Under the pieces are notes generated by a model that worked only from the letters and a program-made list of their open reading frames with translations, had not been told where the DNA came from and ran no database searches. Shown here in pieces: positions 349 through 24,100 of a DNA stretch of 32,000 bases; the first letter of the stretch is position 1, and the number at the start of each line of letters is the position of its first letter. The stretch is from Candidatus Saccharimonadota bacterium (GTDB lineage Bacteria > Patescibacteriota > Gracilibacteria > UBA1369 > 2-02-FULL-48-14). The stretch is taken from positions 180,001 through 212,000 of the forward strand of contig JBAZVE010000001.1 of assembly GCA_041661045.1 (NCBI GenBank), given 5' to 3'. Made by a program: the position numbers and the translations under genes.

Positions 349-873
349 ATGCCAATCACCAGACCTCAAAAAGAAGCTTATCTAGAAGAGCTTCGAGACA
401 AGTTCGGACGAGCAAAATCAGTGGCATTCGGCCAATACAGCGGAATGACCATGGCTCAACTCTCCAAAATGCGTACAGAAATGCGCGCTGCGGGTGTTGA
501 ATTTAAGGTTGCAAAACGAACCTTATTCAAAATTGCTGCTAAAGAACAAGGTTTCGAACTCCCAGATGAGCTTATGATGGGAACTGTAGGTGCCGCTTTC
601 TCTTATGAGGATGGCATCGCAGGTCCCCGCATCATCAAGAAAATGGGTAAAGAGGTGGAAGCCCTCAAACTCATGGGTGGAATTATGGAAGGACAAGTCC
701 TTTCGGTTGCCCAAATGAAGGAAATCGCCGATCTTCCAAGCAAGCAAGAACTTCTTGCAAAAGTGGTGGGTCTCATGCGAGCTCCTTTGCAAAACTTCTA
801 CGGAGCTATTCAGTCTCCACTTTCTTCTTTCGCACGAGCCCTTCAAGGCTACGCAGAGAAGAAGCCCGCTTAA
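349..873 (+). CDS. rplJ: 50S ribosomal protein L10
   Basis: 174-aa ORF with ATG start. The N-terminus MPITRPQKEAYLEELRDKFGRAKSVAFGQYSGMTMAQLSKMRTEMRAAGVEFKVAKRTL is typical of L10. It lies immediately upstream of L7/L12. Confidence 0.95.
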   Translation: MPITRPQKEAYLEELRDKFGRAKSVAFGQYSGMTMAQLSKMRTEMRAAGVEFKVAKRTLFKIAAKEQGFELPDELMMGTVGAAFSYEDGIAGPRIIKKMGKEVEALKLMGGIMEGQVLSVAQMKEIADLPSKQELLAKVVGLMRAPLQNFYGAIQSPLSSFARALQGYAEKKPA

Positions 874-1979: not shown

Positions 1980-2336
1980 TTATCTTCCCAAGGCTAGGTC
2001 TCTTAGAAACGCGGAAGTATTGTGGTAGCCCTTTTGAGCTGCTTTTCTTTCAATGGCTTTTTTATCCTCCGTGCTGACCCGAAATCGAATCACTTGTTCT
2101 TGTTTTTTTTGATACTCTTTTTCGGCTAAAATCAGGTTTGGTAGATCGATCAGAAGAGCGGGGATATCTTCGTGGAGAAAAGTCTGGGATATGTCTGCCG
2201 CTTCGCATTCAAACAAAGTACTTTCTTCGTCAAATGGCTTTAGCGTATAAAAGTACTTTTTGTTATTTAAAGTCACAAAGTATTTTAAGGATTCGTGCTG
2301 TTTTGATTTTGTAGAATGGTTTGCAGTCATGGCCAT
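1980..2336 (-). CDS. ribbon-helix-helix antitoxin (HicB-position partner of HicA)
   Basis: The C-terminus VIRFRVSTEDKKAIERKAAQKGYHNTSAFLRDLALGR matches the CopG/RHH pattern (beta strand, then helix-helix). It sits directly downstream of hicA on the same strand. The ATG start at 2336 overlaps hicA by 74 nt; an alternative GTG lies at 2276. Confidence 0.6.
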   Translation of the reverse strand: MAMTANHSTKSKQHESLKYFVTLNNKKYFYTLKPFDEESTLFECEAADISQTFLHEDIPALLIDLPNLILAEKEYQKKQEQVIRFRVSTEDKKAIERKAAQKGYHNTSAFLRDLALGR

Positions 2337-2508
2337 GAATGGGGATGATTAAGCGATACGGAGGGTTTTGAAGAATGAACTTTGTGTGGCTTCCTTTGGC
2401 CTCTAATTTTTGGAAACCGAACTGATACAGTAAGGTTTCAATCTCATAATATTTGAGTGAATCTGGATTTCGAAAGAATTTTTTGAGCCGTTTTTCAATT
2501 TTTGTCAT
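2263..2508 (-). CDS. hicA: HicA-family mRNA interferase toxin
   Basis: 81 aa. KKFFRNPDSLKYYEIETLLYQFGFQKLEAKGSHTKF...IIPIHGHDCKPFYKIKTARILKIL fits the HicA/YcfA pattern (G-S-H...F...[IV]P.H). Gene order is toxin first, as in hicAB. Confidence 0.75.
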   Translation of the reverse strand: MTKIEKRLKKFFRNPDSLKYYEIETLLYQFGFQKLEAKGSHTKFILQNPPYRLIIPIHGHDCKPFYKIKTARILKILCDFK

Positions 2509-2513
2509 TTATT

Positions 2514-2551
2514 TGTAGCTACATTATAAATTAGTAGGGCTACACTTTCAA
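2514..2551 (-). promoter_or_regulatory. consensus sigma70-type promoter with palindromic operators for the hicA-antitoxin pair
   Basis: On the minus strand: TTGAAA (2551-2546), 17-nt spacer, TATAAT (2528-2523), with ATG at 2508. A perfect 10-bp palindrome TGTAGCTACA (2514-2523) abuts the -10. A related GTAGggCTAC (2534-2543) lies in the spacer. Confidence 0.5.
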
Positions 2552-2662
2552 GTTGATTTAAGTATGACCCAACCACTCTAAGTTGAGAAATGGCGCCCTT
2601 AAGCTTCTCGATTAAAATCGCGTTGTTGGAACGCTAACAACACCCTCTTTGTTTAAAAATAC

Positions 2663-2690
2663 TTGCCTTAAAACATCTCCGTAGTATAAT
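2663..2690 (+). promoter_or_regulatory. sigma70-type promoter for the leader and radical-SAM-like gene
   Basis: TTGCCT (2663-2668), 16-nt spacer, TATAAT (2685-2690). The same cTTGCCTt -35 context recurs at the pilin promoter (8381-8388). Confidence 0.5.
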
Positions 2691-2712
2691 TAAGGTTACT
2701 TTTCGCACAATT

Positions 2713-2772
2713 ATGTTTCAATTCACGGCTCAGCATCATCACTCTCATCAGGCGCGGCATAAACATGTCTAG
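2713..2772 (+). CDS. candidate 19-codon His-rich leader peptide (MFQFTAQHHHSHQARHKHV)
   Basis: ATG at 2713, TAG at 2770-2772. 6 of 19 codons are His, including a run of three. Its 3' end overlaps the 5' arm of the antiterminator hairpin. No clear SD, but SD motifs are absent from nearly all genes here. Confidence 0.3.
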   Translation: MFQFTAQHHHSHQARHKHV

Positions 2773-2819
2773 TTGAGTTTAGTTCAAACTTTATGCCGCT
2801 CCAAAAGAGCGGCTTTTTT
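2754..2819 (+). terminator. attenuator: antiterminator hairpin competing with a rho-independent terminator
   Basis: Hairpin 1: gcggcataaa (2754-2763) pairs perfectly with tttatgccgc (2790-2799). Hairpin 2: gccgctc (2795-2801), loop caaaa, gagcggc (2807-2813), followed by TTTTTT (2814-2819). The two share nt 2795-2799, so they are mutually exclusive. Confidence 0.6.
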
Positions 2820-2836
2820 AATTTAACCCAAAATTT

Positions 2837-4081
2837 ATGTCACCAAATAATACATCCGAGCTCCCACGATATGTTTTTGAGGGAAGTGGGGCTCCTGAAG
2901 CCCAATTGAGAGGTTCTAATGCAATCCTCGTCTCGGCAGAGAATTTATCCGCCATTTTAACTTGCTATGGTGCACGAACGGATGAAGAAACTTTGAATCG
3001 CATCACCGCTCGGCAGAACCCTTATGGGCAAAAACGAGGCGGCCTTGGATACGGTGGTTTTTTTAAAGTTAAACCTGTGGATGATTCGCCAGACGCCCTT
3101 CGAGCTACGGTTAGAAGTGGCATTGTGAATGTGAATCTTTACGCACGCAGACAGGCGGAGGAGTCTCCCGTTTCGCTTGAACTCCTAGACCCTGCTGCTC
3201 GATTTTTAAGATTCACTGTGGGTGGGCGGACCGTGGGCACCGGCTCAATTCCACCTGTTCCTGGTTGGCTAGGTAAAACCCTGAGTGACGGCACCCCCGT
3301 TGCTCAAATCGTGCAAGTTCACGGTCCCAACTTGGTGAGCATATGGGGCAGAAATCGTTGTACCCTTTTTGATGAGGGGACCGCTTGTTCATTTTGTATG
3401 TTCGATGGAGGTGGAAACAATGCCTCGCGCACAATGGATCAAGTGATTGAAGCGATTCAAGTGATGAGAAGTACCGAAACTCCCGGTGACACCAACCGAC
3501 ACAATAATTTAACGCTGACCACCGGCATGCTCTTGCCGGAAGATATGGATCCACTTGTAGCGGATATTGCCAGATTTAAAAGTACCTTCCCGGGGTTTAG
3601 GCTTGCACTTGAGACCACTCCCATGGCCGGCCCGGAACGGAGCTATCTTGCGGACTTGAAACAGGCCGGTCTCGATACGCTCATGATTCCGCTGGATTGT
3701 GCCTCCCCCAAAGCACAGGAAGAACACCTCCCTGGAAAAGCGGCTTTGCTTCAACGAGATTACTGGGACTGCGTGGACAGCGCGACCAAAGTATTCGCAG
3801 CAAATAATGTGACCAGTTCTTTGCTTGTAGGTTTGGAGCCTCTGGAAGTTACCGTTGAGGCCATGCGACAAATGGCAAATCGCGGAGTGGTGCCCGAACC
3901 CCTTCCGGTGCGTTGGAATGATTCCCGGTGGATGGCAGAGAGTCCCAGGCCCTTAACCAAGCCGCGAGATTTGATTCTTGTAAGACAAAAGTTGGAAGAA
4001 ATTCTAAAAACAATGGAAGCGGGTGGCCCACTGGCAGGTTGTGCCTCCTGTGGGGGCTGCACCGGGATCAGGAAGAAGTAG
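2837..4081 (+). CDS. radical-SAM-like Fe-S enzyme with non-canonical cluster motif and an N-terminal domain of unknown function
   Basis: 414 aa. CTLFDEGTACSFC (nt 3359-3397) gives CX8CX2C rather than CX3CX2C. Downstream elements look like a radical-SAM TIM barrel (LTLTTG, IPLD, SSLLVGLEPLE). The C-terminus has GCASCGGCTG (CX2CX2C, nt 4040-4060). Family assignment is by motif only. Confidence 0.6.
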   Translation: MSPNNTSELPRYVFEGSGAPEAQLRGSNAILVSAENLSAILTCYGARTDEETLNRITARQNPYGQKRGGLGYGGFFKVKPVDDSPDALRATVRSGIVNVNLYARRQAEESPVSLELLDPAARFLRFTVGGRTVGTGSIPPVPGWLGKTLSDGTPVAQIVQVHGPNLVSIWGRNRCTLFDEGTACSFCMFDGGGNNASRTMDQVIEAIQVMRSTETPGDTNRHNNLTLTTGMLLPEDMDPLVADIARFKSTFPGFRLALETTPMAGPERSYLADLKQAGLDTLMIPLDCASPKAQEEHLPGKAALLQRDYWDCVDSATKVFAANNVTSSLLVGLEPLEVTVEAMRQMANRGVVPEPLPVRWNDSRWMAESPRPLTKPRDLILVRQKLEEILKTMEAGGPLAGCASCGGCTGIRKK

Positions 4082-4090
4082 CAGCCCAAT

Positions 4091-4123
4091 ACGGAGGGGA
4101 GTCTGGGTATGGCTCTCCTCCGT
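4091..4123 (+). terminator. stem-loop after the radical-SAM-like gene (possible terminator)
   Basis: acggaggggag (4091-4101) pairs with ctctcctccgt (4113-4123): 11 bp with one G-U and an 11-nt loop. It is followed by T-rich sequence but no clean T-run. Confidence 0.35.
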
Positions 4124-4151
4124 TGTGTTTCTGACCGTTTTCTGCTATACT
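4123..4151 (+). promoter_or_regulatory. candidate promoter of the pilus operon
   Basis: TTGTGT (4123-4128), 17-nt spacer, TATACT (4146-4151), 26 nt upstream of the ATG at 4177. Confidence 0.35.
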
Positions 4152-4176
4152 TATAAGATTAAAACAAAAGAAACCA

Positions 4177-5334
4177 ATGGCAGAAGATCCAAAAGCCGCA
4201 TCAGGCAGCCAAGAACCCGTTGAATCCAAGAATGTTTTCACGGAACTCTTTGGGAAAGAAGGGGCTACGACCTCCCCTCTTGCGCAAAATGTTTTGGCGC
4301 AGAAGGAGAAGGGACGATCCTTTTTTGGCTCCAGCCCAAAACAAGAGAGCGAGTTATCCCTCAAAACTCTTCGGGAACATCCCCGCAAACCCGGTGCCGC
4401 GGTGCTTAAGGCTTCGGTATTGATTTTGATCTTTACCGTGGCAGGCTTCCTCACTCAAAACTCCACTCGATTCTCCTTTTTTGGGGTGAATCCCGCTCTG
4501 CGCGTACAGCAAGCGGAGGAGCAAGTACTGGAACTTTCGGCACGAGTGCTGGTGCAAAACCACCTGGAAGCCGCTTTGCTTTTGGACCAATATCTTTCGA
4601 AAACCGATGAGTATTTTTATGCGCTTTCTCAACTGCAATCGCAGTACACTTCCGAGAACAAAAAGGCGGAATATCAGCTGCAAGTGGAAGAGATGAAACC
4701 GGAGTTGATCGATCTTTTGAGTCAAGTGCAAGAAGACTTTTTAAAAGAAATGAGCCCGGAACTTTTGGCTGCTTCTCAACAAGAAGTGGATACTCAACTC
4801 ACCGCGCTCCATGAACAAGCGGGCACCGTGGATGAAACTATTTTGGTTCAAGAAATTCAAGATTTAGAAACCGCAAAAAACCTCATGACACAGAATGCCT
4901 TTAAGCTCTCTGTGCTCGCTCTGGACCTGGAGAAAATGACCGGAGAGGATTTTGAGGCGGTCTACACTCAGTTCAGCGAAGTGAATGCCAGCATCACCGC
5001 GTTGATTGGAAAAATTAAAAATGCACGATTTGAGTGGTCCTTTTACCTGGATCAACTGGAACGACTCACCAAAACCGTGGACCCCCTCTTTGGAACCGAG
5101 TTTGCGGGCAGCTTGAGTTTGGATGAACTGCGCTTCACCAGTATGGGAACGGTGACCCTCACCGGAACCACGGTGACAGATGACAGTAAAAATTTCACGC
5201 TCGTCTCCGACTTGATCGATGCTTATGAAAAATCTGAATATTTTAAAGATGTTTTTGACCGCTCTTACAACAAGAACAGTGAGAATGAGGCTTACCTTGG
5301 AAGTTTCCGTATTTCCTTAACTCTTGAACAGTAA
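4177..5334 (+). CDS. bitopic membrane protein, PilN-like pilus assembly component
   Basis: 385 aa. A disordered cytoplasmic N-terminus is followed by a single TM (AAVLKASVLILIFTVAGFL) and a long heptad-like region. The C-terminus VTLTGTTVTDDSKNFTLVSDLIDAYEKSEYFKDVF resembles the PilN periplasmic domain. It is first in the pil operon. The INLLP-type PilM-binding motif was not seen. Confidence 0.5.
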   Translation: MAEDPKAASGSQEPVESKNVFTELFGKEGATTSPLAQNVLAQKEKGRSFFGSSPKQESELSLKTLREHPRKPGAAVLKASVLILIFTVAGFLTQNSTRFSFFGVNPALRVQQAEEQVLELSARVLVQNHLEAALLLDQYLSKTDEYFYALSQLQSQYTSENKKAEYQLQVEEMKPELIDLLSQVQEDFLKEMSPELLAASQQEVDTQLTALHEQAGTVDETILVQEIQDLETAKNLMTQNAFKLSVLALDLEKMTGEDFEAVYTQFSEVNASITALIGKIKNARFEWSFYLDQLERLTKTVDPLFGTEFAGSLSLDELRFTSMGTVTLTGTTVTDDSKNFTLVSDLIDAYEKSEYFKDVFDRSYNKNSENEAYLGSFRISLTLEQ

Positions 5335-9174: not shown

Positions 9175-12100
9175 ATGCGTCCACGCCTCCACTCGAACGC
9201 TTTGAAAAAAATTGTGATTTATGGCTTTTTGATGAGCTTTTTGAGCTCTTTGTTGCCCATGAATCGGGTGGCGGAGGCTCTGAGCGTGGTGGGCAGCAGT
9301 GACCCTGTGGTGGTGGAAAACCCCGGCGGCAGCCTGCCGGAGCTGCGAAACACCGGAACGGTGGAGACTCGTTATGGTCTGGTGGCCATTTTGGTGGAGG
9401 ACAGTTTGTGGAGTGCCAATTCCGGCGGAAGCGGGTTCTTCTCTTTTTTGGGAACCAGCGGGCTCAAGCAGAAAATTCAAACTTATGCCGAAGATGTTCA
9501 GGCCACCCTGCCCTGGACCAAAACGGTGATCATTCAAGTGGAGGATGAAGATACTCCCGTGGAGATTCAGCGCATGCTGGAGCGGTTTTATTTTGAGGGG
9601 AACCCTGATGATTCGGATTTTACGCGACTCACCGGCGTGGTGATGGTTGGGTCTGTTCCGCTTCCCGTGGTGAATAAAAATGGGAATCGCTTTGTGTCTT
9701 TGCTCCCCTACACCGATTTTGAAGAGCCTTCTTACCTGCTCGATGAAACTTCCTTGGATTTTCTCCCCAATTTGGAGGCTCAGAATTTGCAAGCGGAGGT
9801 TTGGCATGGACTGATTGTTCCTCCACTCGATGGACAAGAAGGCTTGGACTTGTTGGCCGCCTTTTTTGATAAAAATCACAAATTTCACACCGGAGACCCC
9901 GAGTACACCTCGTTTGATGAAAAGATTTTTGTGGGGGATTTGGTCACGGAGCAGTCCGCCATCAATCCCACTTCTTACGACAGTTACGACCGTTTTGTGG
10001 GCCTTTGGGAAGAGCTGAGTTATTACCGTTACACCAACGACTTGGTGGAGGACCTCTACACGGATATGCAGGCCTCCGTGGAGGCGGGGGACTCTTTGGA
10101 CAATGATGGAGATGGGAATTACGACGAGGAGGCTGCGAATGGGAAGGATGAAGATGGGGATGGTTTGGTGGATGAGGATATTGGAGATGGTTTTTTTGGA
10201 ATCGATAATGATGAGGATGGACAAGTGGATGAAGATCATTTTGAAGACAACAACAACGACAAAGGTTGGGTGTACTCCGGTTACACGGACAGTGAGGCGG
10301 ACACTCTGTTCTCCGACAAAATGGTGGATGAGGATCCTCCCGGAGACAGCAATGGAGACGGGTGTCCCGGACATTGCGGTGTGGACGACAATGGAGACAG
10401 TGAAGATCACGATGGAGACGGCTACCCCACCGGGCTTGAGGCTTTGTACGGGTGGGATTGGGCGAACGAGAAGAAACCTTGGCGATCGGTGAAGAACTGG
10501 ACCAATGGTCAGTTTGGAACGAGTTTTGAAACAGCGGATGCCGCAACGGAATACTTGCAGGAGATGTTTGTGGACCAGTTCTTTAACGACGGACTCAGGA
10601 GCCCCACTTGTTATGCCTCCGATGGCAGCTATCATTCTGAGTGGGATGATGATGAGGATGGATTTTGTGATGAAGATGGCTCCGTCGAAATGCAAATTTG
10701 GACGAGTCCGAGTGGAGGAAGCGCCAGCGGGACTTGTGCGTATAACGACGCGGATTGCGATGGACTCATCGATGAAGATCCTCTTGGCATTCAACCGGCA
10801 GCTTTGTTTGAAGATCTTCCGGATATTCAGGCGCGGGACATTGTGGGGCAATTGACCAGCCGTTACGCGGAACTTTTTGATCAGCCTCAGGGCGTCTGGA
10901 ATCGTTTGGTGGATCAAACCGGACGATATGAGACTCGCAAAAGCGATGGAGAAACCGTGCAGAATGATTACGACACCGCTATTTCTTTGATCTCTAAAAA
11001 AGATGAATTCACCCTGCAATACTTGAGGAGTTTGAACGACAATTTGGAGGCGCAGCTCAATACCATTGTGGAAGAAAATTTGGCGGAAGATATTCCCATT
11101 ATTGCGGGACTTCAAATCACCGGATGGGTTCAGCGCGCGGGAGAAGGGGCCGAGTCCATTTGTGATCCTGAGGGACCTGTGGACCCGGATGGAGATAAGT
11201 GTTTACAGTTTGTGAACCACTCCGGTTTTGACAATACTCTTTTTGATAGTGAAGGTGCTCTCACCGATTTGGATGAGTTGGAACCTTCGGACTATTATAT
11301 CAGCGGACAGCAGCTCTGGGATGTCCATGACGCGAACCAATGCACAAGTTTTGCAGGGACCGATGAGGAAGGCGGACAGTTGGCGCAGTTCAACACGCTT
11401 TACAGCCGTTTGTTCAGCGTGGTGGCCGCCGAAATGACAAAGGCGGATGTAAAAGATTATCGCAACTGTGTGCCTGAATTTGCCTCTTATTTGGAGGATA
11501 TTCCGGAGCTGTGTGATGAAGCCACCGTGACGAAAGAAATTCGTGTTTTGGATGGGGCAAAGACGCCCGAAGCAGAGGATACGAGCCGTTGGGAAGTGGG
11601 GGCCGAAGCGTGCTTTGAATTCCGCGAAGTCTTCACCTTCAACCGTTATTCTCAATCCGTGGCGGAGTTCAACAACTGGCTCACCAATAAAATTCGTGCC
11701 TTCCGCAAAGATGGGGACGATGACGAAGCCAGCTACCAGGAATTTTTGGAAAAAGTGGAGGAAGAACGAGATCGACACGATCCACGGCCGGATGAGGCCA
11801 CTTTGAGACAGCCCTTTGCCAACTTGGATATGATTGCCGCGGATGCGAGCCTGGAATACACCATGGAAGATCTGCTGATTGAGCTGGGGTACAGCGCCCC
11901 TTCGGATGATGACATCGATACTTTTTTGGCGCTGCAAGATGAAATCCAAATAGAGAATCCTTCGGAGGGCAGCGGGATGAGCGGCGTGGAGGAATTGAGT
12001 CTTTCTTTTGACAAACTCTTCCTTAAAAAAGACACGGAAGAGCTCACCACTTTGCGCAGTGAGGCGGCGGAAATTTCTTCCTTTGCCAAGCATACGCAGC

Positions 12101-15100
12101 CCACCATCGCCACGCTCAATGCCCAAGCCACCAATGCCGGCTCCCCCAATCTCCCCATTGATGCGACTCGACGCGTTTCTTTTATCGATGCGGAAGGTTT
12201 GGCTCAGGAGCTTGTGTACATCAATGTGTTTGATGCTCAAACTCTTGAAGCTGTCCAAGCACAAGTGGCGGCTTTGGCGGCGGACATGGAAGAAGTTGCG
12301 GGTGGAAATCGTTTTGTGAACACCGTGGAAAATTTTTATACGGGCATCAATGCCGATCAATTGGCGGATGCACTGGAATGGCGTGGACTGAGTATTGATG
12401 CCAAACATCGCTATGTCCTCAGCCATTATCTTGGTGAGGAAGAGCCTGTGGTGGCCAAGGCCCGATCGGGTTATGAAATGGTCTCTTTGATTGCCGATGG
12501 CAATGCTCAAGAGCTTTACTTTGCCTTCAACGGAGACCAGCCGGAAACGGAGGAGGATTTGGAATTTTTATACCGTAGCCAAGCGGAAATCGAGGCTGCT
12601 CTTGCCGCTGCGCAAGCGGATGCTGCGGAAGAGTATGAAGCTTTGGCGCCCGTGAGCGGCACAACGCCCGTGGTGCTGGTGGAATGGATCAATGAAATTC
12701 AAGAATGGCTGCGAGACTTGGAGGACTCTACGAGCAGCTTTACCATCGCCAGTCTTTTGGATGGTGAACAGGTTTGTGGCTCGGCCAGCGCAGCGGAAGT
12801 GGACACCACGGACGCGGACGATGATGGCATTGTGGACAGCGCCGAGGCAACGGGTTCCTTGTTTTTGAGCACGGATGAGTCCACCGTTCTGCAAGCGGGA
12901 GGTGGAGACTATCTCACGGTTTCTGTGGCTGCCAGGAATGCGGACGGAACGATCAATACCGAGGACAGCAGCACCCGAGTTGAACTCCGCATCGTGAGTG
13001 GAACGGAAAGTATTGAGATTCTTGGAACCGCTTCTCTTGTGCTCACGGGTGGCGTGGCGAGCTTCACTCTGGAAAGCGCCGCTGCCGGAAGCTTTGGCCT
13101 GCAGGCCCTTGCCGAGTCCAGAGAGGATATTCGATCGAGCGATGTTTTGAATGGAAGCAGCGAGCCGAAATTTGTGAAACTCAGCACCTATATTACGAAT
13201 TTGGAGCATGCCGGAACCGATACGGTGATGGAGGGGGATCGCATTGAAATCCGTGATGAGGAAGGCACGGTACGAGCCGTTTTGAACCCCATTACCGGGG
13301 ATTTGGATTTACGCAATGCTGTTGTAAAACTTTTGGAGGCCACGGAAGACTTGCCCACACGGATTTCCGTTGAGTCAGGCGAGGGCCTGGTTTATGGGGT
13401 GATCTTTTTGATCCCGGAGGAAGGAGAACTGGACATTCAAGTGCTGCACCCCAGCGCCGGCATTGCTTCCGCGGAAAATGGTACTGCTCTTGAAGAAAAT
13501 GGCGTTCAAATGGGCCTGGTGACAGACCTTGGGCAAATCACTCTTAGCGCCGGATATCTCTTGGATTTTGAGACCCCTTCGAATTTAAATATCTATGATC
13601 CTCTGCATATCTTGAATGATGATGGAGAAAGTTTATTCACGGTGACCCTTGGAACCGCTGACGATGAAGCGAGTGCGGAAATTTTGAAAGATGAAGGCGA
13701 GTATTCCGATTATCTTGGCGCTGTGTTGGGGAAGATTTTGGGGTGGATGGGAGTGGGCAGCGCGAAGGCGGACTCCGTGATCCCTGACTCCGACGGAGAT
13801 CTTTTGGATGATTTGGAAGAGTGGGTGATTGGAACGGTTTTGAGCAATGGAGACAGCGATGGCGATGGCTATTTGGATGGGCTTGAAATTTTCTCGGGCT
13901 ACGATCCTTTGGCTGAGGGCAAGAAACTCTTCACGGATATTGGAATCGAAAATCCTGCGTATCCCGATTTGGCTCTGCTCTATTTGCGAGGTGTGATCAA
14001 GGGGTACACCGATGGCAGTTTTAGGCCGGACAACCCCATCACTCGAGAAGAATTTGTAAAAATTGATCTGGGTGCCATTTGTGAAGACTGCGACAGTTAC
14101 GATGCGGTGTATGAAACGGAGCTCCTGGCCGCCTACGGCTTGGACCCCTTCCCCGATACCACCATCAATCCGGAACTTTTGGCTTGTGTGGCCGAAGCCA
14201 AGGGACGAGAAATTGTGTCCGGGTATGCCGGGGGTGAGGAGGAAGGATATTTTTTGCCCAAACAGTTCATCAGCCGGGCGGAGGCCACCAAGGTTCTTGT
14301 GGAGACTGCTGGCTACAGTGTGGATCCCGTGGCGGAGGGCGAAGTGTGGTACAGCCAATACATCGCCACTGCGGAGGCACACTCTCTTTTCCCGGAAGGC
14401 AGCCCGTTGACCACGGAGTGGTTGGAAGAATCCATCACCCGAGCTGAATTTGTGATGATGGCCGTCAATATGATCGAAGATAAAGACTGTCGTACTCCGA
14501 TGATGGACAGCAATAGAAATGGAATTCCCGATGTGGAAGAACTGGATGATCCTGAGGAAATTCCTGAAGTCCCCGAAATCCCTGGAGTCCCCGATGCATT
14601 TTCCGGCTTTGGCGGATACGAGCATGGCCCAGGACTTTTTGTGGTTTCCCCCAATGCAACCGTGGAGACCATTACCATTGGCAGTGGAGAGGGTCTCACT
14701 CGTGTGAATCTTTTTACCAATGAGATCCCCGCAAATGGGGAGTCTGAAATCTTTGTGCGGGCTGAAATCCGTGATGTGGATGACCATATTTATGCCGAAG
14801 ATGACAGCAGCGTGATTGAGTTTATTTTGTCCAGCAGCGAGCACGGCACTGTGGAGTCCAGTCGTGTCCGTGTGAAGAATGGCGTTGCAGAAACCCGTTT
14901 TGTGGGGACTGACTTTGCCGGAACCGTAACCGTGGAAGGCCGGATCAGTGATGGTTCACTCCCCTCCCAAAATGCGCAAATTCATCTGCTCCCCGGGGAG
15001 CCGGTGCGTGTTGTTTTGGAAGGCGAGTCTCGTGTTCTTCCTGCCGGAGCGGAAGCAAGTACAAATATGAATTTGAGTTTGTATGATTCTTTTGGAAACC

Positions 15101-18100
15101 TGGCCTCCAATGGTTTTTACTCCGTGTCGCTCACTGAAGAAGGGGGTCTTGAACTTTTGGATTTGAATGATGAGGACAGTTCTATGGATGGGATACAAGT
15201 CACGGTCTCGGATGGAGTGCTTCCCTTCCGTGTTCTTTCCTCCCTCACCGTGGGCCAAGCCGGTGTTCAAGCTTCCCTCCCCGAAGTTCCCAATAGCGGC
15301 GATGAATGGTTGATCGACCACAAAGAAAGCATCATCCTTAAAGTTCAACCCACTCAACCGTATCTTCTTGCGGGAAGTGCCGGTTCGGAACTTGTGACGA
15401 TTCAAGCGGTGGATGAACTGGGCTTTCCCGTTTCCGGTTTTCAAGGAGAAGTGGTTTTGAGTCTGAGCGATAGCGGTTTTGGAAGTTTTTCTTCCGAATC
15501 GATTTCCTTGGTGAGCGGCAGTGGCAGCAGCACCCTAAGCCCCGGGACCCTGGCGGGAACGGGGTCTATTCTTGCGGAAAGCCCCGGACTTTTGGGTGGC
15601 AGCGGCCCCTTGGTGGTGAAGCCTGCCGATCCTTATGAGCTTCGCATTCGCAGTGAAGATGGCGACTCGGTGCTTGCCGCGGGAGAACGAGAAAAATTCT
15701 TTATTGAAGCGTACGATGTCTATGGTAATTTTGTGAGCACGGACAGCACCACAAGCGGCTCCCTGCGCCTCACGGACAGCACTGCTGAATTTGGTACGCT
15801 GTCTTCCGGATCCTTTGTGCTCAACCAAGGCCGTGCTTCTGTTTTTGTGACTAGTGGAGAAGTGAGTGGAAAGGTGAGCTTGGTGGCGGCTTCGGAGGCA
15901 CTTTTGGCGGGGACTTGGGGTGGCACCGTGAATTTCACCCTTTCAAGTGAGGAGATTGCCGAGATCGACATGCAAATGCTTTACGCCTCCGTTTTGGGTG
16001 GGCCTTTTGGAGACAGCACCCAAGAAAATTATTTGGGCGCCTGGATGCTCTTTAATGGAAAAACTCAAGCGGTCACCAGTTTGACGAGTGAATCCAAACC
16101 CAAAAACCGTTTGGCCACGATCGATGCGACCGGCAGCATTGTCCTTGCGGAAGATGGGATGGTGAGCCAGGTGGTGCATGGAGCCGGCACGGACCTCCCC
16201 ACTCGTATTCAATGGCGAGAATTCCCCAGCGATGCTTTGCTTGCCGAAATTTTTTACAAGGTGGGAGATCTGAGTGGCGTGAGCCCTGAGCTGCTCACCA
16301 CCGATACTGATTTTGAGTTGGAAGAATCCGACGGCGCCTGGCTCCTGCGAGAGAATGCCGCCGCGGTGCTTAAAATTCGTGAGGATGGGCAAGTGGCCTT
16401 GATGGACCCGAGCTATTCTCTTGCCGTGAATGCGGCGGCGGATGGCCTGAGCCTTGTGGCCCTCAAAAACACGGATCCGGTTCTGCTCATTGATTTTGAT
16501 TCCGCTTGGAATGGCGAGCTCAAAGCCCTGGAAAGTGGTTTTGTTTTGGAAGACTGGGATCGTTTGGAGGATGGGCTTTATCTTAAGCCGACGGCTTTGA
16601 GCGAGCACCGCTTGGAGCCAATTCCAACCGGAAACAGCTCCTTGAATGCCATGGGTCTTGCCCTTGTGGATCCCTCTCAAGAATTGGCGGGAGCCATGCA
16701 GCCCTCCTTGGGCTACCCCAGTCTTGAATCGGCGGAAGACAATGGCAATATTGGTTGGGAGGAGGAGAATAAACACCTTTTGCTTTTTGCCGCGGGCAAT
16801 ACTGTGGGGCAATCGAACCTTTTCTACCCTTCTGAAATTGGAGTGGTTTTGGGAGACCCCACCATTCAACTGCCCACTGCCGGAGACATTGGTGATTTGG
16901 GCTTCACTGCGGATATTGGAGTACCCGTTTCCGCTTCCAATGAAGACATCCATACGCTTTTGGATTTGGATTACAACGGTGACGGAACCATGGATGTTTT
17001 AGCCGCATATGAGGATGGACGCATCGAAGTGCTGCAAAATGCGGACTCCGCCGTTCGTCTCAAAAATCGAGGCGAGCTTTTATTTATTGAAAACGGGATT
17101 TCCTCCATCGGTAAAGGTGACTTCAACAATGACGGATTGGAAGATCTTTTGATCGCCACTGAGGAAGCCTGCTTTGAAGGAGAGATGTGTCTTTATACTT
17201 ACGAAAACATCGGGGGCGGCTTCGTCGCCAAAAACTTAAGTCTCAGTGGTGTGTCCGGCACCCCAAAACAAATCCAAGTGGGTGATTTGAACAATGATGA
17301 TTATGACGACATTGTTTTGGTGGATGAAAATTTGGTGATGAGTGTTGTATGGAATTCTGAGGGTGTGCTTGAAACTGTGAGCCCAATTAAAGATTTTGGA
17401 CTTCAGGCGGATCCGGAAACCAATTTGGGTGGAGAGCTTGTGATTCATCATGAAGGCCTCAGCTCCGGTAGCGTGGGATTATCGGTCTTGAGCGATGAGT
17501 TTGCGAACTCTGATGCCATCAACACGGACTTTGGAGGCTTCCTCAGTGCGGTGAGTGGAGATGATGATTTTGAGAGTGACAGCGAGGGCCTTTCACAAGA
17601 AAAGACGCTTCCTTTTGAATATGCGGATGCCCTCAGTGAGCTCTTCACTGTGAGCAAGTCGTTGAGTGATCCCAACTCCGGGACGGTGGAGATTGGGGAT
17701 GTCTTAACCACCCGCGTCAGCATCCAAAATGTTTCCGGGGCCACCCTTTCGAACATCTATTTCTCCGATACGGATTCCGGTAGCTTTGCGCTCGATTGGA
17801 ATTCTTTGGACAGTGCTTTGGTCCAGGAGGGTGAAGGGTTGCGGCCCTTTATTTATGGTCCTTTTGATCTTAGTAATGGACAGCGCCTGGAGCTTGAATA
17901 CGATCTTTCCGTTCAAGCCCTCCCCGCCCTTTCCGTGCTTCTCGGCCAAGATTTTTACAGTGACTATCGAGATGATGATTATTTGGATATTGCCGTAAGT
18001 CCGGAGGGCGGAAGCGCGGGCGACTTGCTGGTGTTTTACTCTGACGGGGTGGTCACGGAAGTACGAGAGGATGGATTTTTGGGCATCGGAGAGCGAAGTT

Positions 18101-21100
18101 TCCGTCATGTCAATTACCAAGAAAAGAAATATTCTTCTTCCACTTATGAGGAAGAATACACCGATACCGCCCCCTCCCCCCTTGCCGATTCGGATGAAGA
18201 CGGAATCCCTGACTTTATAGAGGGTCTTGATGATGAAAAAGGAATCCCCGTGCCGACCGATGGCAGCTTTGATCCCATTGCGGAGGTGATGGGTGGCCAA
18301 GATACCAATGGAGACTACTACTACTCCCCCGATGAAATGTTCGTGAGTACAGAAGATTCGGATGGGGATGGTCTCCATGATTTGGTGGACGACTGGCTCA
18401 TTGCGGGAACGGATGCCTTGCTTTTGAATCCGGACTTGGATCTCACCGCGGACATTCCGGAACAAGAAATCGAACTGGAGGCTTCTTTCTCTTTCTTGGA
18501 TGAAGAAATTGAAGGGATTACTCAAAAAATAGAAGAAGTGGTGAGCATGTTTACCTGCAATGGGGGCTGTATCGCCTTCCCGGGCAGTGTCGCCTTTTTA
18601 GCACCGGGCGGCTACCACGACCCCACCACCGGAGCCACTATTATGACTGATTATGGGACGCCCATATTTGGCCTTTTGCCTTGGCTTCCCGTGGTGTGCA
18701 GCGGACAGATGTGTTACGCCTCCCAAGTGCTACGGCTGTATTTGGCCCCCACCACTACCTTGGGTCTTGGTATGGGTGTTTGCCTTGGGCAGTATGGCGC
18801 CGGGCAGTGTTTCGCTTTCTCCATCCCCATTCTTCAAGCGCTTGGGCTCTGTGATATGATGAATGGATTCATTACCGAAGCCTTGGCAAAAGCGACTGGC
18901 TTTGTTGCAGAAGGAGCTCAAGTGGCCTTTAATGTGGGGAACATCGTTTCGGTGACCGCGGGCACCAGTGGATTGGAGAGCGCGGTCTTCACCACTTACC
19001 GCCCTCCGGTTGCCGTGAACACCAATATTCAAGTGCCGGGCTTCCCTTCTATTTTCACAGAATGGTGGAAGGCCCAAAAAGAAGAATTCTTTAAGGTGCT
19101 CGACTTGCCCGATATTACTTTTATTTACCCGGACCCCAAGAGTCTCGTCGCCAAACCAAATCCCCTCACGCTCAAAGAAACGAGTGACCTGGCTTCCGCC
19201 GGCCCCCTTGAAAAGATTAAAATTGTGGAACAAGGCATCATGGGACTTGAAAAATGGCTCAACTGGGCTCATGGCCTCCCGCTGATCAATATTGATGTTG
19301 AGCCGGTGGAAGTTCGTTACCCCGCGCTCACGCAAGAAGAAATCGATATCACTCTGGCCAGTATGTATCTTTGGAAAGAGCGAACCGAGCTTGAGTGGTT
19401 GGATTTTAAGAATCAATTTGCTCTGCGGAATGATTTAACCGCCGCCCAAAAAGAGGTGGTGGATGGCATCAATGACACCATGGAGCAGGCCATCACCGCG
19501 GTGGAAGCAAACTTGGCCATTGTGGAAGGCTACTCCGAAATCCCTGAAAAGATTTTGGCGCTGCGGGATTTGGAAGCAACTATTGCTCAAATTATTGTGT
19601 GTTATCTGGATGCCATTTTGGGCAGCACCGCGGGCTATTTGGCTGAGAACGCGCAGCGCATCGAGGCCTGGGGCAATTGGGCTTTGGATATGCGAGACCT
19701 CCTCGATAGTTGGCAGGTGCTCGTCGATCTTTCTGCCGATCTCATGGATTCTTGCGACAAGTGCACCAACCAACGCTACAGCGCCATGCAGCTTTTGTTC
19801 AGTCTCTTTATTTTTATTCCGGACTTCCCCGTGGTGGAACTTCCAAAACTTCCGGACATTGTGATCGATGTGTCCAACATTCAAGGTGGGCTCACCATTG
19901 TGTGGCCGGATCTCAAATTTATACCCGAGCGGCTCAATATTCCAGAATTACCCGTTATTGTGTTCCCCGATGTGGATCTTAAATTGGATGCGGATTTTGA
20001 TTTTGATTTGGATATCCCCACTCTGCCCGTTCCCAATCTTGATATCGAGTTGCCCCCGCTGCCTCCTCTCACCCTACCGAACCTCCCGGATCTTCCCCCT
20101 CCACCGGCCATACCGGCCTTGGATCCTTCACTGGAAGCCGCGCTCAGTATTTCCAGCAATATCTTAAAAATCGTTTGTATCATTCGCCAAGGATTTATTC
20201 CTGTGCCTGAGTTTGCGCTCAAAGCGAAAATTGAAGAAATCACCGAAAGACCCGGCGGCATTATTCTTCCCATTGATTTGGCAATTACGGTGGAGTGGCC
20301 CAAATTCAATTATGACTTTGTAAAGGAGATTCAGGTCAACACCATGATGAACTTCAGTTGGGAGATCACCACTTTTTATGACTTTATCGCCGGCATTGGG
20401 GAAAAGAGCAACGGCATGCTGACGGACTTTGTGCAGGAAAGCATCAACAAGCCTTTGGAAGAGCTCCAAAAAGACATTCAAGATGTGTTTGATCTTTTGG
20501 GTGAACAAGAATGGGACCTTGAAGTGGACGCGGAGTTTGATGGCGAAGCGAGCCCGGATGGCGCGGATGCTTCCACAGATGGAGGGGTGGGGGTTCAAGG
20601 CGATCTTGAGAATGATGGCGAAGACGCTATTCAGGAATTTGAGGATATTGAGGAGGATATTGAGAGTGGCTTTGAGTCCTACCAAGAGGCTATGGACACC
20701 GCGCTGGCCTACAAAGATCACCCTTTGGTGAAACAAAACTTAGCCATGCTCAAGAGCACTTTGGAGACCATGCAAAAAGAATTCAAGGCGTGGGATGCCG
20801 TGATGCCCGATGAAGTTTTGCTTTCCGTGGAATCGCAAGAGCTGGCCTTGGATGATCCTTTGCTTCATCGATTTGATGAGATCCGTCGCTCCCCCAATCT
20901 CGATCAAGACTTTTTGGCGAGCATTGAGGGGACTCCGCTTTCTTCGGTGGTGAGTTTGCGTGATTCCTTGCTTGCGAGTACCGAGGATTTGATGCAAGGC
21001 ACCGTGGCTTTGAAAGGCATGGGAGATGAATCCTTTTACCGTTATTTGGCGGCGGAACAAGTTGGAAATCCCGTGGCTTTGGCGGGCATCGCAGCAGAGG

Positions 21101-24100
21101 GGGAAGCACTTTCTACACGATGGATTGAAGAACTCAATCGTGTTGAGTTGGCTGCAGAGATGGATGACGCGAGTTCTGCCGCGAGTTTCGACTCCGAGAG
21201 TCTTGAGCTTGGCGCTCAAGCGGAATCCACGAACCAAGGTTTGTATATTTATAATTCTGAAACGGGTGTGAGTGAACGATTGGTGGACTACACGCAAGAA
21301 TCCGATGAGGCCACCAGCCTTTTGTTCATGGACATTGATGAGGATGGGGATCAGGACTTGGTCTACTCCATGGGAGGTGATATTTATCTAAAAGAAAATC
21401 ATACTGAGACCGCAAGCGTACGAGCCGTGAGCGAAGACCCACTGGAACGCCGCGTGCAGGATTTGGATCCCGGCCAGGGCAGTGTTCACAATTTGAAACG
21501 AGGTAAAAATGATTACTCAGAGGCAAGCTTCGCGTTCAATGGCGCTGAAACTGCGGTGGGCTATGAAGTGCTTTTGTATGATTCTTTGGATGCCGAGGAG
21601 TCCAACCCCGATGAAAACATTAAAAGACTTTTGCTTTTGAATGAAGGTGAAAATGAAAGCCTACCCTTTGTGGATGAGGAAGAAAATTCGGTTGGAACCT
21701 TGCAAAAGAGCCGGCTTTGGGTGGATGCCGTCAGTGGAAAAGTTTCACTTCAAAATGCCTACCAACGCACCTTCATTGATACCAATGGAGAAATTGAGGT
21801 CGGTGAGGCCGTGATTTTTCAAACCATTGAGAACAGTGTTATTGAGTTTGATTCCGCGAATAGCTCTTCTTCCATCTCCGTTCCTGCCGGTTCCTTGCTT
21901 CACTTCTCGGCGCAAGCGGAACTGCGTTTGCGAGTTGAGCAAGGCTCTGTTTACTGGATTGATGCCACGGAAAAAGTGGACACTCAGGATCTTGAGCAAG
22001 GGATGGAAATTTTTGCGGAAGAGCTGATTGCCTTGGAAAGTTCCGGGGCCGATGCCACCTTGCTCAGCAGCGATGGCCTCTCACTAGATCTGGATCAGGA
22101 AGAACTCTTTGTTATGGACTCTCTTGTGAGTACCGATAATCCTGCGGTCACGGTTCAACTGGAAAATGGGGCTTACTATGCCATCACTCGCGCCCTCTAT
22201 GAAGGAGGCGGGATCGGTACAAAATCTGAAAATATTCTCCTCAATCCTCAAGTGTGTGCGGATGACAGTGAGCCTTATATTTTGGTGGATAACGGCGGAG
22301 ATGAGGATGGCGGTGATGGCTTGGTGGACAGTGATGGGGATGGGGCCTTGGAACTGGCCATTTTCTCCGTGCGTGAGCTTTCTGCCGAGTCTTCTTTCGA
22401 TAGCGACAGTGCGATTGTGGATGCCTATTGGGATTTGGATGACCAAGTGGACAGCGATGGAGACGGCATCAAAAATAATGATGACCAGTCTTTGGGCCTT
22501 ACGACGGAAATTGGGCCTTATGAAGACACGAGAGAGCGCATTGTTACCCTGTATGTCACGGACAGTGCCGGGAATACTGCTGTGCAAGAGATTGCTGTGG
22601 AAATTTATGTGCCTGCCATTGTGCTCACCGAAGCCACGGTGGATTTTGTCCGAGGGATAACGGATCCGCTCAGCCCCGATTTCCCCTTCCATTTGATTCG
22701 CGATCGCAATGGAGTCCTGAAAGAAATAGGAGAAGGAGCCGGCACCGATGCCTATGGGGAAATCTATGAGGAATTGATTCCTTCCAACCGTTTAGCGGTT
22801 TACGATTCCACCGGAGAGGTGGTTGCCGAATTCAATCCCGTCACTAAACAAGTGCTGGTTTACGACTCCGCCTATGCCTCTGCAGTGCTGCCCGCGGGCG
22901 ATGAATGGCCTTCTCGTTTGGTGGTTTACCAAAAGAGCTTTGGGGCCGTGGTGGGCAGTTTCCTCTTTGTGAATTCCGCTTCCACTCAAATCCGTGAGGT
23001 CGCCGTGCCTTTGGAGAATTTGGATCTGTCCATTTACGATTATCCAACGGTCTACACGGTTTCCGATTCCGAGCACTACGAGTTCACGCAAAATTCTTTG
23101 GTTGCACGCAATTCTCTTGGGGCGCTGGAATTTATGCTGAGTCCCAGTGGCAGCATCAGCATCTTTGATGAAAGGTATCACTTGGTGAAACGAGCCGCGA
23201 GTTCTCTGGATGAATATCTTGTGATTGAGGTTTACGATGGTGATCAACTCGAGCTTGAGATCTGGCCCGGAAGCCCCGATGCGCTTCACCTCACCACCAC
23301 GGAAGAGTTGGATCTGCCCGGTTCCGAGCTCTTGAATCCCGGCACTTCCGGCTCCGGCAGCACACGGCTTGTCTTTGAAGATATTGATGAAGATGATCCT
23401 TTGTACAAAAATCTTGTAGAGCTTGTGGAGCGCGGCATTTTGGAGGGGTATACCGAAAACGATGCGCAGTACTTTAAGCCCGATCAAGCCATCAACCGTG
23501 CGGAATTCACCAAGATTATTTTAGGAATCCTTTGTATTGTTCCACGGGATGAGGCGGAGGCACTGCCCTCTGTTTTCAATGATATTTTGGATCCCACCGT
23601 TTGGTATTTTGGAGTGACCAAAGAATCCTTCTTGCGAGAACTCATCACGGGTTACTTGGGAGAAGTCGATTCTGCCGGAGTGGCTCCATTTAAACCCAAC
23701 AAAACCATCAGCCGTGCAGAGGCGGTTAAAATTGTGCTCGAGGCTTTGGATAAAGAAAATATTATTGAGCTTCCGGAGAATCTTGTGGGAGAGCCTTGGT
23801 ACGATCCTTATATGAATATCGCTCAGGATTTGACCCCCTACTTGGTGAGTGATTCCACCGCGGGCAGTGAATCGTTTATTGTGACTAAGGAGGAAGCCAA
23901 AGATCCTTTGCATGAGCTCACTCGTTATGAATTTGTGGAAATGTCTGTTCGTGTACTGGAGGCTTATAACTGTTTCGATTTGGACAGTGATGGAGATGGA
24001 CTCTTCAACATTGACGAAGAGACCGTGTACGGTACCGACCCCTACAATCCCGACACCGATGCCGGTGGCGTGGACGATGGCAGTGAGGTGGACCGAGGCA

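Follow-up and report, generated by a model that had tools for sequence, protein, structure and literature searches.

A candidate histidine-responsive transcription attenuator upstream of a variant radical-SAM gene in a Patescibacteria-type genome

This analysis concerns a 32,000-nucleotide (nt) stretch of DNA from a Candidatus Saccharimonadota bacterium (GenBank assembly GCA_041661045.1, contig JBAZVE010000001.1, positions 180,001 to 212,000), referred to here as the window, and within it the short leader that precedes a gene for a variant radical-SAM (rSAM) enzyme. On computational evidence alone, the leader is interpreted as a ribosome-mediated transcription attenuator that reads histidine supply, an interpretation to which a probability of about 0.6 is assigned. 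It is carried by the sequence elements themselves, by complementarity between the leader open reading frame (ORF) and the terminator that is not random, by recurrence of the arrangement in four related loci, and by the links to histidine seen around the gene family. Attenuation by leader peptides is a known, textbook kind of mechanism that needs tight transcription-translation coupling; what is notable is the host, which is of the candidate phyla radiation (CPR) type, the compact form, and the link of an orphan rSAM enzyme, together with HisR and HisG-like proteins, to histidine.

Anatomy of the leader and proposed mechanism

Coordinates are collected in Table 1. In a promoter scan the leader promoter matched 10 of the 12 consensus positions, with a spacer of 16 nt, and from the position of the hexamers transcription would start near 2697. 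The leader ORF begins 22 nt past the -10 hexamer, and histidine accounts for 6 of the 19 residues of its peptide, the codons starting at 2734, 2737, 2740, 2746, 2758 and 2764. The segment GCGGCATAAA (2754-2763) is perfectly complementary over 10 bp to TTTATGCCGC (2790-2799), part of which doubles as the 5' arm of the terminator. An initial annotation of this DNA had described the promoter, the 19-codon His-rich ORF, the 10-bp antiterminator and the 7-bp terminator with its T6 tract, and all of these were found in place when checked against the sequence. Only 17 nt lie between the T-tract and the rSAM start codon, and the rSAM gene can therefore be transcribed only through the terminator, from the promoter at 2663-2690.

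No Shine-Dalgarno sequence was found before the mini-ORF, nor before any gene of the window (for example those starting at 349, 894, 2837, 5908 and 7162, and including the ribosomal protein genes). Since all window genes lack one, its absence was rejected as an argument against translation of the mini-ORF.

Under the proposed mechanism, the 19-codon leader ORF would be translated close behind the polymerase. With His-tRNA plentiful, the ribosome would clear the HHH run and cover 2751-2763, 2795-2801 would pair with 2807-2813, and the resulting hairpin with its U6 tract would end the transcript near 2819, before the rSAM gene. With His-tRNA scarce, the ribosome would stall with the first His codons in its A site and its leading edge just short of 2751; the free 2751-2763 segment would then capture 2790-2801 on its emergence, such that the terminator would be blocked and transcription would read through into the rSAM gene. 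This scheme presumes translation of the leader ORF, its coupling to transcription, stalling of ribosomes at the His codons and transcript ends at 2819, all of which are inferences.

Table 1. Features of the leader region in the window and of corresponding loci in relatives (locus numbers as used in the text).
Locus	Feature	Position	Strand	Basis or value
Window	-35 hexamer TTGCCT of leader promoter	2663..2668	+	Direct reading and promoter scan
Window	-10 hexamer TATAAT	2685..2690	+	Direct reading and promoter scan
Window	Leader ORF, 19 codons + TAG, encoding MFQFTAQHHHSHQARHKHV (HHH)	2713..2772	+	First ATG past promoter; TAG at 2770-2772
Window	His-His-His run (CAT CAT CAC), proposed regulatory codons	2734..2742	+	HH/HHH shared by five leaders; ribosome-masking folds
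Window	Antiterminator 5' arm, core GCGGCATAAA at 2754-2763	2751..2763	+	Within last third of leader ORF; truncated-transcript fold, duplex energy
Window	Antiterminator 3' arm, core TTTATGCCGC at 2790-2799	2790..2801	+	2795-2801 doubles as terminator 5' arm
Window	Terminator hairpin GCCGCTC-CAAAA-GAGCGGC	2795..2813	+	2795-2801 pairs with 2807-2813, 7 bp; terminator scan; -12.3 kcal/mol
Window	T6 tract of terminator	2814..2819	+	TTTTTTAATTT common to window, L001 and L002
Window	Variant rSAM enzyme, 414 amino acids, regulated gene	2837..4081	+	Pfam Radical_SAM, 29.6 bits
Window	13-bp GC-rich hairpin directly past rSAM stop, T-poor tail	4091..4123	+	Scan
L001	Leader peptide MKGFPFFITVGILHHHTGGVRRAHP (HHH)			
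L002	Leader peptide MKTLFKVQNLIAPHHLTGGVRWAHPLRG (HH)			
L048	Leader peptide MNNSNLTIHHAKKAAA (HH)			
L050	Leader peptide MKNICKKSHHQKTGG (HH)			
Window	ORF-terminator duplex			-19.7 kcal/mol; shuffle p <0.0005
L001	ORF-terminator duplex			-19.4 kcal/mol; shuffle p 0.037
L002	ORF-terminator duplex			-16.9 kcal/mol; shuffle p 0.053
L048	ORF-terminator duplex			-16.1 kcal/mol; shuffle p 0.008
L050	ORF-terminator duplex			-14.5 kcal/mol; shuffle p 0.028
L006	HisR-operator-type palindromes (two)	3545-3582		
L051	HisR-operator-type palindrome	2700-2719		
L055	HisR-operator-type palindrome	2333-2352		
L059	HisR-operator-type palindrome	811-830		
L055	hisR-terminator pairing	2631-2647 with 2697-2707		
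L057	hisR-terminator pairing	2645-2656 with 2700-2711		

Folding of the leader and the modelled effect of ribosome position

The significance of the pairing was assessed against 2000 dinucleotide-preserving shuffles. When the window ORF was paired with the 5' flank, arm and loop of the terminator, the shuffled sequences gave a mean best duplex of -9.4 kcal/mol (standard deviation 2.1), and none of the 2000 reached the observed energy; the antiterminator pairing in the window is not due to chance. The initial annotation had proposed RNA folding of both conformers as a check. A transcript cut before the 3' arm of the terminator folds most stably into the antiterminator, in a lengthened form (2751-2763 : 2790-2801), and the 10-bp helix is the minimum-energy solution only while the terminator 3' arm has yet to be transcribed. 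The free full-length leader (-25.5 kcal/mol, z = -2.3) prefers the terminator together with a different long-range helix (2715-2734 : 2773-2790), the terminator having a probability of 0.60.

The influence of ribosome position was modelled by masking a footprint of -15 to +12 nt around the first A-site base and deriving the probability of the terminator helix from the partition function, either with pairs spanning the ribosome allowed or, in a stricter model, with only the RNA downstream of the ribosome folded. Such modelling describes equilibrium as opposed to kinetics, and its outcome is sensitive to the assumed footprint. With spanning pairs allowed, the terminator probability in the window was 0.02, 0.02 and 0.46 with the A site on the first, second and third His codon of the run, respectively, and at least 0.99 on later codons and the stop codon; over both models it ranged from 0.02 to 0.26 on the first or second His codon and was at least 0.98 past the run. 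These masking folds, with the antiterminator formed on the first His codons and the terminator on later codons and the stop, agree with the attenuation logic set out in the initial annotation. Corresponding values on the His codons of two leaders from relatives were 0.03 and 0.59, then at least 0.94 (L048), and 0.00 and 0.02, then at least 0.91 (L050). In the stricter model, L001 gave 0.68, 0.16 and 0.61 on its His codons and 0.96 afterwards. The His run marks the last codons at which a stalled ribosome still permits the antiterminator in four of the five loci, the exception being L002, which has a weak terminator.

The antiterminator predicted for L001 by the stricter model is branched and encloses two small hairpins, a form seen also in L002, and L001 in addition has a strong helix between the 5' part of its ORF and the arm. 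Conservation of the peptide segment TGGVRxAHP between these two loci is explained by this predicted structure, whose arms and an enclosed hairpin fall on the same stretch. A small hairpin, CATCCC-loop-GGGATA, was observed at L001 1339-1354, L002 4592-4608 and L048 3813-3828 (the same as L049 27-42), and in only these rSAM leaders among 59 loci; it lies within the predicted antiterminator in L001 and L002, and in L048 it is located past the first terminator, inside a second short ORF.

Leaders in related loci

Homologues of the rSAM enzyme are almost all from CPR-type metagenome bins. The initial annotation had looked to orthologous loci as the place where the idea might fail; the mini-ORF and the alternative pairing were found in four of them (L001, L002, L048 and L050), with duplexes that beat or nearly beat the shuffles (Table 1). 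These loci belong to two clades of the rSAM tree, with 42-66% rSAM identity to the window, and each shows the order promoter, short ORF containing HH or HHH, T-run hairpin and rSAM gene, the promoter-like hexamers being at the equivalent place. In L001 and L002 (61-66% identity) the order is rplJ, rplL, terminator, promoter, mini-ORF, hairpin with TTTTTTAATTT and rSAM, which is that of the window minus a minus-strand insert. L048 and L050 (42-45% identity) form a separate clade in which the -10 hexamer is followed by the mini-ORF and a hairpin with a T-run; the leader ATG is only 7-8 nt past the -10 hexamer, which suggests that these mRNAs are leaderless. More broadly, a hairpin with a T-run precedes the rSAM gene, or the gene before it, in L001-L005, L048, L050, L053-L055, L057 and L058.

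The sole residue pattern common to all five leader ORFs, whose peptides have 15-28 residues, is HH or HHH. HH is found in 13 of the 707 ORFs with 12-35 codons that these loci contain, a background frequency of some 1-2%, and 5 of the 13 are the leader ORFs. Complementarity between the terminator 5' arm and the 3' end of the mini-ORF is present in all five loci, and the point at which the pairing arm ends ranges from 9 nt ahead of the stop codon (counted to its first base) to 4 nt beyond the last base of that codon. The arms themselves vary between loci (GCGGCAUAAA, GUGCGG..GGC, GCUGCCGCUUA and CGGCGGCU), and the last His codon of the run is separated from the first arm base that pairs by 8 nt in the window, 9 nt in L001, L048 and L050, and 13 nt in L002. 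Fisher combination of the five duplex p-values gave 2.7e-6 if the loci are taken as independent, and 0.008 when each clade contributed a single conservative value. For the window, L048 and L050, folding the truncated transcript gives the antiterminator as the structure of lowest energy; for L001 and L002 it appears only when a ribosome is modelled. Terminator hairpin energies in the relatives were -9.3 (L001), -2.2 (L002), -10.1 (L048) and -7.0 kcal/mol (L050). Among the five, the window stands out for the most stable antiterminator and for the leader richest in histidine.

Histidine context of the rSAM family

A gene of about 95 codons, encoding a Trp_repressor-family protein, is located directly upstream of rSAM in L003/L020, L004-L006, L051, L053-L055 and L057-L059. 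The protein scores 94.5 bits on TIGR02531 (YerC/YecD; cut-off 42.2) and matches PDB entries 3FRW, 3KOR and 3G1C with E-values of 1e-15 to 5e-17. YerC has been identified as HisR, a repressor of histidine genes that has L-histidine as co-repressor and the operator cacTTTA-N6-TAAAgtg; in Firmicutes lineages where HisR is missing, control is reported to be exerted by T-boxes or by leader peptides containing 3-5 His codons (Ashniev et al. 2022, PMC9413887). In 128 kb of the loci examined there are five perfect 7+7 palindromes built on TTA-N6-TAA, and all five are 25-45 nt upstream of hisR-like starts; a near-operator, GTTTTA-GCACAT-TAAAAC, is present in L003 at about 1541-1560.

Between hisR and rSAM, a HisG-family gene is present in L053 (36 bits; Pfam cut-off 25.5) and L058, with weaker relatives in L051, L052 and L019, giving a HisG-like gene in five loci from three lineages. 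The L053 and L058 proteins score above the Pfam cut-off and below the NCBIfam hisG cut-off, and are thus divergent members; the HisG-like protein may be a functional partner of the rSAM enzyme. Coordinates for the HisG-like genes are 247-1041 in L053, where the gene overlaps the rSAM start, 343-1080 in L058 and 3110-3982 in L051. In one clade, a conserved protein of about 80 amino acids is encoded between hisR and rSAM, in place of the HisG-like gene of other clades (L004 3706-3951, L005 3760-4002, L055 2752-2991 and L057 2757-2999). It has the motif ...PSMY(E/R)T... at mid-protein in three of the four cases and ...(K/E)FR(T/N/G)Y... at its end in all four; Pfam scans of the L055 and L057 proteins gave no match, and comparison of those of L004 and L057 with the HisG-like proteins revealed no significant similarity.

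The palindromes ahead of hisR predict autoregulated hisR-(hisG-like)-rSAM operons in CPR-type genomes and, judged by its neighbours, rSAM is part of a histidine-controlled module in the relatives. The association with HisR, operators and HisG-like neighbours indicates that the rSAM enzyme is probably tied to histidine. The initial annotation had considered it odd that the regulated gene was not recognisably related to histidine. By association, this oddity is eased by the HisR gene, the HisR-type operators and, in some relatives, the HisG-like gene beside rSAM; because relatives place rSAM behind a HisR-family gene with operators, the objection that it is unrelated to histidine probably falls away.

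The window itself has no hisR (by tblastn), no operator-like palindrome near 2620-2712 and no HisG-like gene. Loci without hisR upstream of rSAM have a His-codon leader. L001 and L002 apparently carry both a leader and a hisR gene, the latter just downstream of rSAM at the site equivalent to the 4091-4123 hairpin of the window, and hisR seems to have been lost from that site in the window lineage. With neither hisR nor its operator in the window, an exchange of HisR and attenuator like that of Firmicutes appears to have occurred here. The two devices would act with the same sign, expression being off when histidine is plentiful.

Pairing in hisR-type loci and the possible origin of the leader

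In hisR-type loci, the hisR codons for (L/M)GGY pair with the 5' flank and arm of the terminator. A 10-bp pairing of GGGCGGCUAC with GUAGCCGCCC is perfect in L057 and contains one G-U pair in L055, and shuffle p-values for the hisR-terminator pairing ranged from 0.005 to 0.09 (L003, L051, L054, L055 and L057). Of six hisR-type loci modelled, all but L005 form no terminator in the free RNA unless a ribosome covers the arm. On this modelling, the pairing may provide translation-coupled control of read-through into the downstream genes, and it suggests that the terminator/antiterminator pair is older than the leaders.

Descent of the mini-ORF from the 3' end of hisR is attractive by eye (FITVGILHHHTGGVRR versus TITRVAHWLHHGAGGYQ), but received no support beyond that of shuffles: Smith-Waterman comparison of the mini-ORF peptides with 11 HisR proteins gave shuffle p = 0.1-0.6, and comparison of mini-ORF DNA with 12 hisR genes gave 0.24-0.98. 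A wider proposal, which must be regarded as quite unlikely, is that the leader arose in these reduced CPR bacteria by truncation of hisR, keeping the promoter, the His-Gly-rich 3' codons that pair with the terminator, and the terminator itself, and that the HisG-like and rSAM module so controlled would perform a histidine-linked reaction, for example an alternative step in the making or salvage of histidine or of a derived compound. If true, a protein regulator would have been replaced by an RNA regulator built from its own gene, and the orphan radical-SAM family would gain a lead to its function.

Weighing the attenuator against other explanations

Several observations count against a histidine attenuator. 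The run comprises only two or three consecutive His codons, as opposed to seven in E. coli hisL, and in the window leader the His codons at 2746, 2758 and 2764 are placed such that stalling on them would promote termination. Folded in full, the leader does not adopt the 10-bp helix as its most stable structure, and no clear anti-antiterminator (1:2) helix is conserved across the five loci. L001 shows no switch when spanning pairs are allowed, switching only in the stricter model, the terminator of L002 is weak and its modelled switch partial, and a leading edge at +15 instead of +12 moves the boundary one codon earlier, such that only the first His codon is permissive. The five loci are homologous, and the combined p-values therefore overstate their independence. 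Finally, the hisR-type loci with an intact hisR share the pairing between ORF 3' end and terminator, and in them a ribosome halted at the only His codon close by would cover the arm, the opposite of the situation in the leaders, because just 5 nt separate that codon from the arm. The pairing may then be inherited, and alone is no proof of histidine sensing.

The explanation that remains the main rival, although it is judged unlikely, is that the hairpin is a constitutive, leaky terminator from an older operon that lowers or insulates rSAM expression, and that the mini-ORF, in the former place of hisR, is an untranslated or meaningless remnant. In relatives, hisR is already separated from the genes that follow it by a hairpin with a T-run, and hisR codons for MGGY pair with the terminator 5' flank (over 10 bp in L055 and L057), a pairing that the L050 arm, GGCGGCU with AGCCGC, nearly reproduces. 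Some HisR proteins have HH at the matching place (HWIHHGMGGY in L003 and HWLHHGAGGY in L058), and the leader promoter of L002 keeps GTATTA-GCACAT, which matches the left half and spacer of the L003 operator. However, neither the peptide nor the DNA of the mini-ORF is significantly similar to hisR, and a remnant should somewhere have lost its ATG, its frame or its His codons, whereas all five loci keep an ATG-started ORF with HH while the other residues differ. HH is steadier in the leaders than in HisR proteins, where NH, KH, NN and QR are found, and the gap from His codon to arm is 8-9 nt in the leaders versus 5 nt in hisR genes. In addition, the 10-bp arm of the window is lineage-specific, implying continued selection for pairing. 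A leaky terminator with a remnant ORF thus leaves unexplained why ATG, frame, HH and spacing have been kept across about 40% protein identity.

The order of promoter, short ORF, leaky terminator and rSAM gene is also the classical layout of a locus for a ribosomally synthesized and post-translationally modified peptide (RiPP), and the mini-ORF could accordingly encode a functional peptide, either a RiPP precursor acted on by the rSAM enzyme, as the initial annotation had offered as an alternative, or a His-rich metal-binding micropeptide, with the hairpin setting the ratio of peptide to enzyme mRNA. The conserved HH and the high histidine content of the window peptide fit such a role, which is nonetheless very improbable. 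The AlphaFold model of the rSAM enzyme (pLDDT, the predicted local distance difference test score, of 83) is closest to HydE, LipA, MqnE, HydG, ThiH, BioB and PylB, which places it nearest to small-molecule and lipoyl TIM-barrel enzymes, and the best 50 PDB matches listed include no SPASM/twitch maturase. Neither a RiPP recognition element (RRE) nor a PqqD-type domain was found with Pfam and NCBIfam, which detected only the rSAM core, and no such ORF is located beside rSAM in at least 11 loci (L003-L006, L051, L053-L055 and L057-L059), that is, in most of the orthologous loci. Beyond HH the peptides have nothing in common, and the TGGVRxAHP segment shared by L001 and L002 coincides with the predicted antiterminator arms and enclosed hairpin.

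A promoter followed by a strong terminator some 120 nt further on is, equally, the anatomy of a small RNA (sRNA) gene, and the initial annotation had allowed for a terminated sRNA here. A stand-alone, trans-acting sRNA of about 120 nt, from about 2697 to 2819, with rSAM transcribed separately, has little probability and fares worse than the attenuator: no Rfam family matches, the 17 nt past the T-tract are too few to accommodate a promoter of its own for rSAM, and no candidate seed region is conserved, conservation across loci being limited to the His codons, the pairing potential and the T-run. The element is, moreover, always in cis, in the same orientation and directly before rSAM. Terminated attenuator transcripts reportedly act as sRNAs in some bacteria, rnTrpL being an example, and an sRNA is possible as a by-product of the attenuator.

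Comparison with known systems

Scanning the whole window against Rfam at gathering thresholds, with His_leader (RF00514) and T-box models included, gave no match, and E-value mode on 2500-2900 and on the L048 and L050 leaders returned only sub-threshold, chance-level matches to unrelated families. In spite of the absence of a sequence or structure match to the Rfam model, the proposed attenuator resembles hisL of E. coli and Salmonella (RF00514) in having a promoter-proximal short ORF with consecutive His codons followed by an intrinsic terminator, the 5' arm of which pairs alternatively with an upstream segment; in both, ribosome position would decide the outcome and expression would be off when histidine is plentiful. 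It differs from hisL, apart from the shorter run of His codons, in its compact three-segment layout, in which the ORF contains the antiterminator arm and a conserved 1:2 helix is absent, in the lack of a Shine-Dalgarno sequence (L048 and L050 being perhaps leaderless), in its target, an uncharacterised rSAM gene as opposed to hisGDCBHAFI, and in its CPR/Patescibacteria-type host. E. coli trpL is similar in having only two regulatory codons and a stalled ribosome that abuts the antiterminator 5' arm, and differs in having Trp codons, four segments with a pause hairpin, and a biosynthetic operon as its target.

The His leaders of Firmicutes (PMC9413887) likewise have consecutive His codons, 3-5 in number, directly 5' of an alternative terminator/antiterminator, in the absence of HisR, but control histidine biosynthesis or transport genes, whereas the gene here is rSAM. 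HisR itself (B. subtilis YerC, TrpR-family) responds to the same signal with the same sign as the proposed attenuator, and a HisR-family gene with operators precedes rSAM in relatives; its mechanism, however, is that of a DNA-binding protein and does not involve RNA or the ribosome, and the window lacks both hisR and operator.

The rSAM gene and the surroundings of the leader in the window

The rSAM protein matched the NCBIfam variant_rSAM and MSMEG_0568 families, both under cut-off, and sequence searches of the PDB with the rSAM and HisG-like proteins gave no match. The hairpin directly past the rSAM stop codon is probably the end of the transcription unit, its role as a terminator being a prediction from sequence. 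Downstream of it are pilus genes (PilB, PilC and pilin) and a giant ORF. A functional link between rSAM and the pilus genes was considered and dropped, since the adjacency is confined to the window clade and the neighbours elsewhere are nrdR, guaA and purB. The giant ORF, of 5047 codons (9175-24318), is 3' of the pilus genes and has a strongly positive GC skew over its first several kb; its sole Pfam match, on scanning the first 1000 and last 1047 residues, is an SLH domain near the C-terminus. Genetic code 25 (UGA = Gly), considered on account of the Gracilibacteria label, was rejected, this ORF and all conserved genes being open under table 11.

Upstream of the leader are rplJ and rplL, with their own terminator, and then a minus-strand block (1409-2508) between that terminator and the leader promoter. 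The block comprises a 172-amino-acid gene of no known identity, a NikA-like gene (1980-2336) and a HicA toxin gene (2263-2508), the last two overlapping by 74 nt, with a promoter-like site at 2551-2523. Because it is not at this position in L001 and L002, the block looks like an inserted toxin-antitoxin or mobile cassette. About 20 nt 5' of the leader -35 hexamer there is an 8-bp inverted repeat (GCGTTGTT...AACAACAC, with one G-T pair; 2620-2643), which was scored as terminator-like on the minus strand in a scan and might be the edge of the inserted cassette or a protein-binding site. Megablast of 2400-4200 against plasmids, as a sign of plasmid or mobile origin, gave no match, and a scan of viral contigs for further loci of this type yielded none.

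Implications

A full-text literature search found no report of leader-peptide attenuation in CPR/Patescibacteria. If the interpretation as a histidine attenuator is correct, minimal, host-dependent cells would monitor charged His-tRNA, and the exchange of HisR for a His attenuator would have a second case, outside Firmicutes. The variant rSAM family would also be tied to histidine by three independent associations, namely the His-codon leader, the HisR gene with its operators and the HisG-like neighbour, which would render its function testable.

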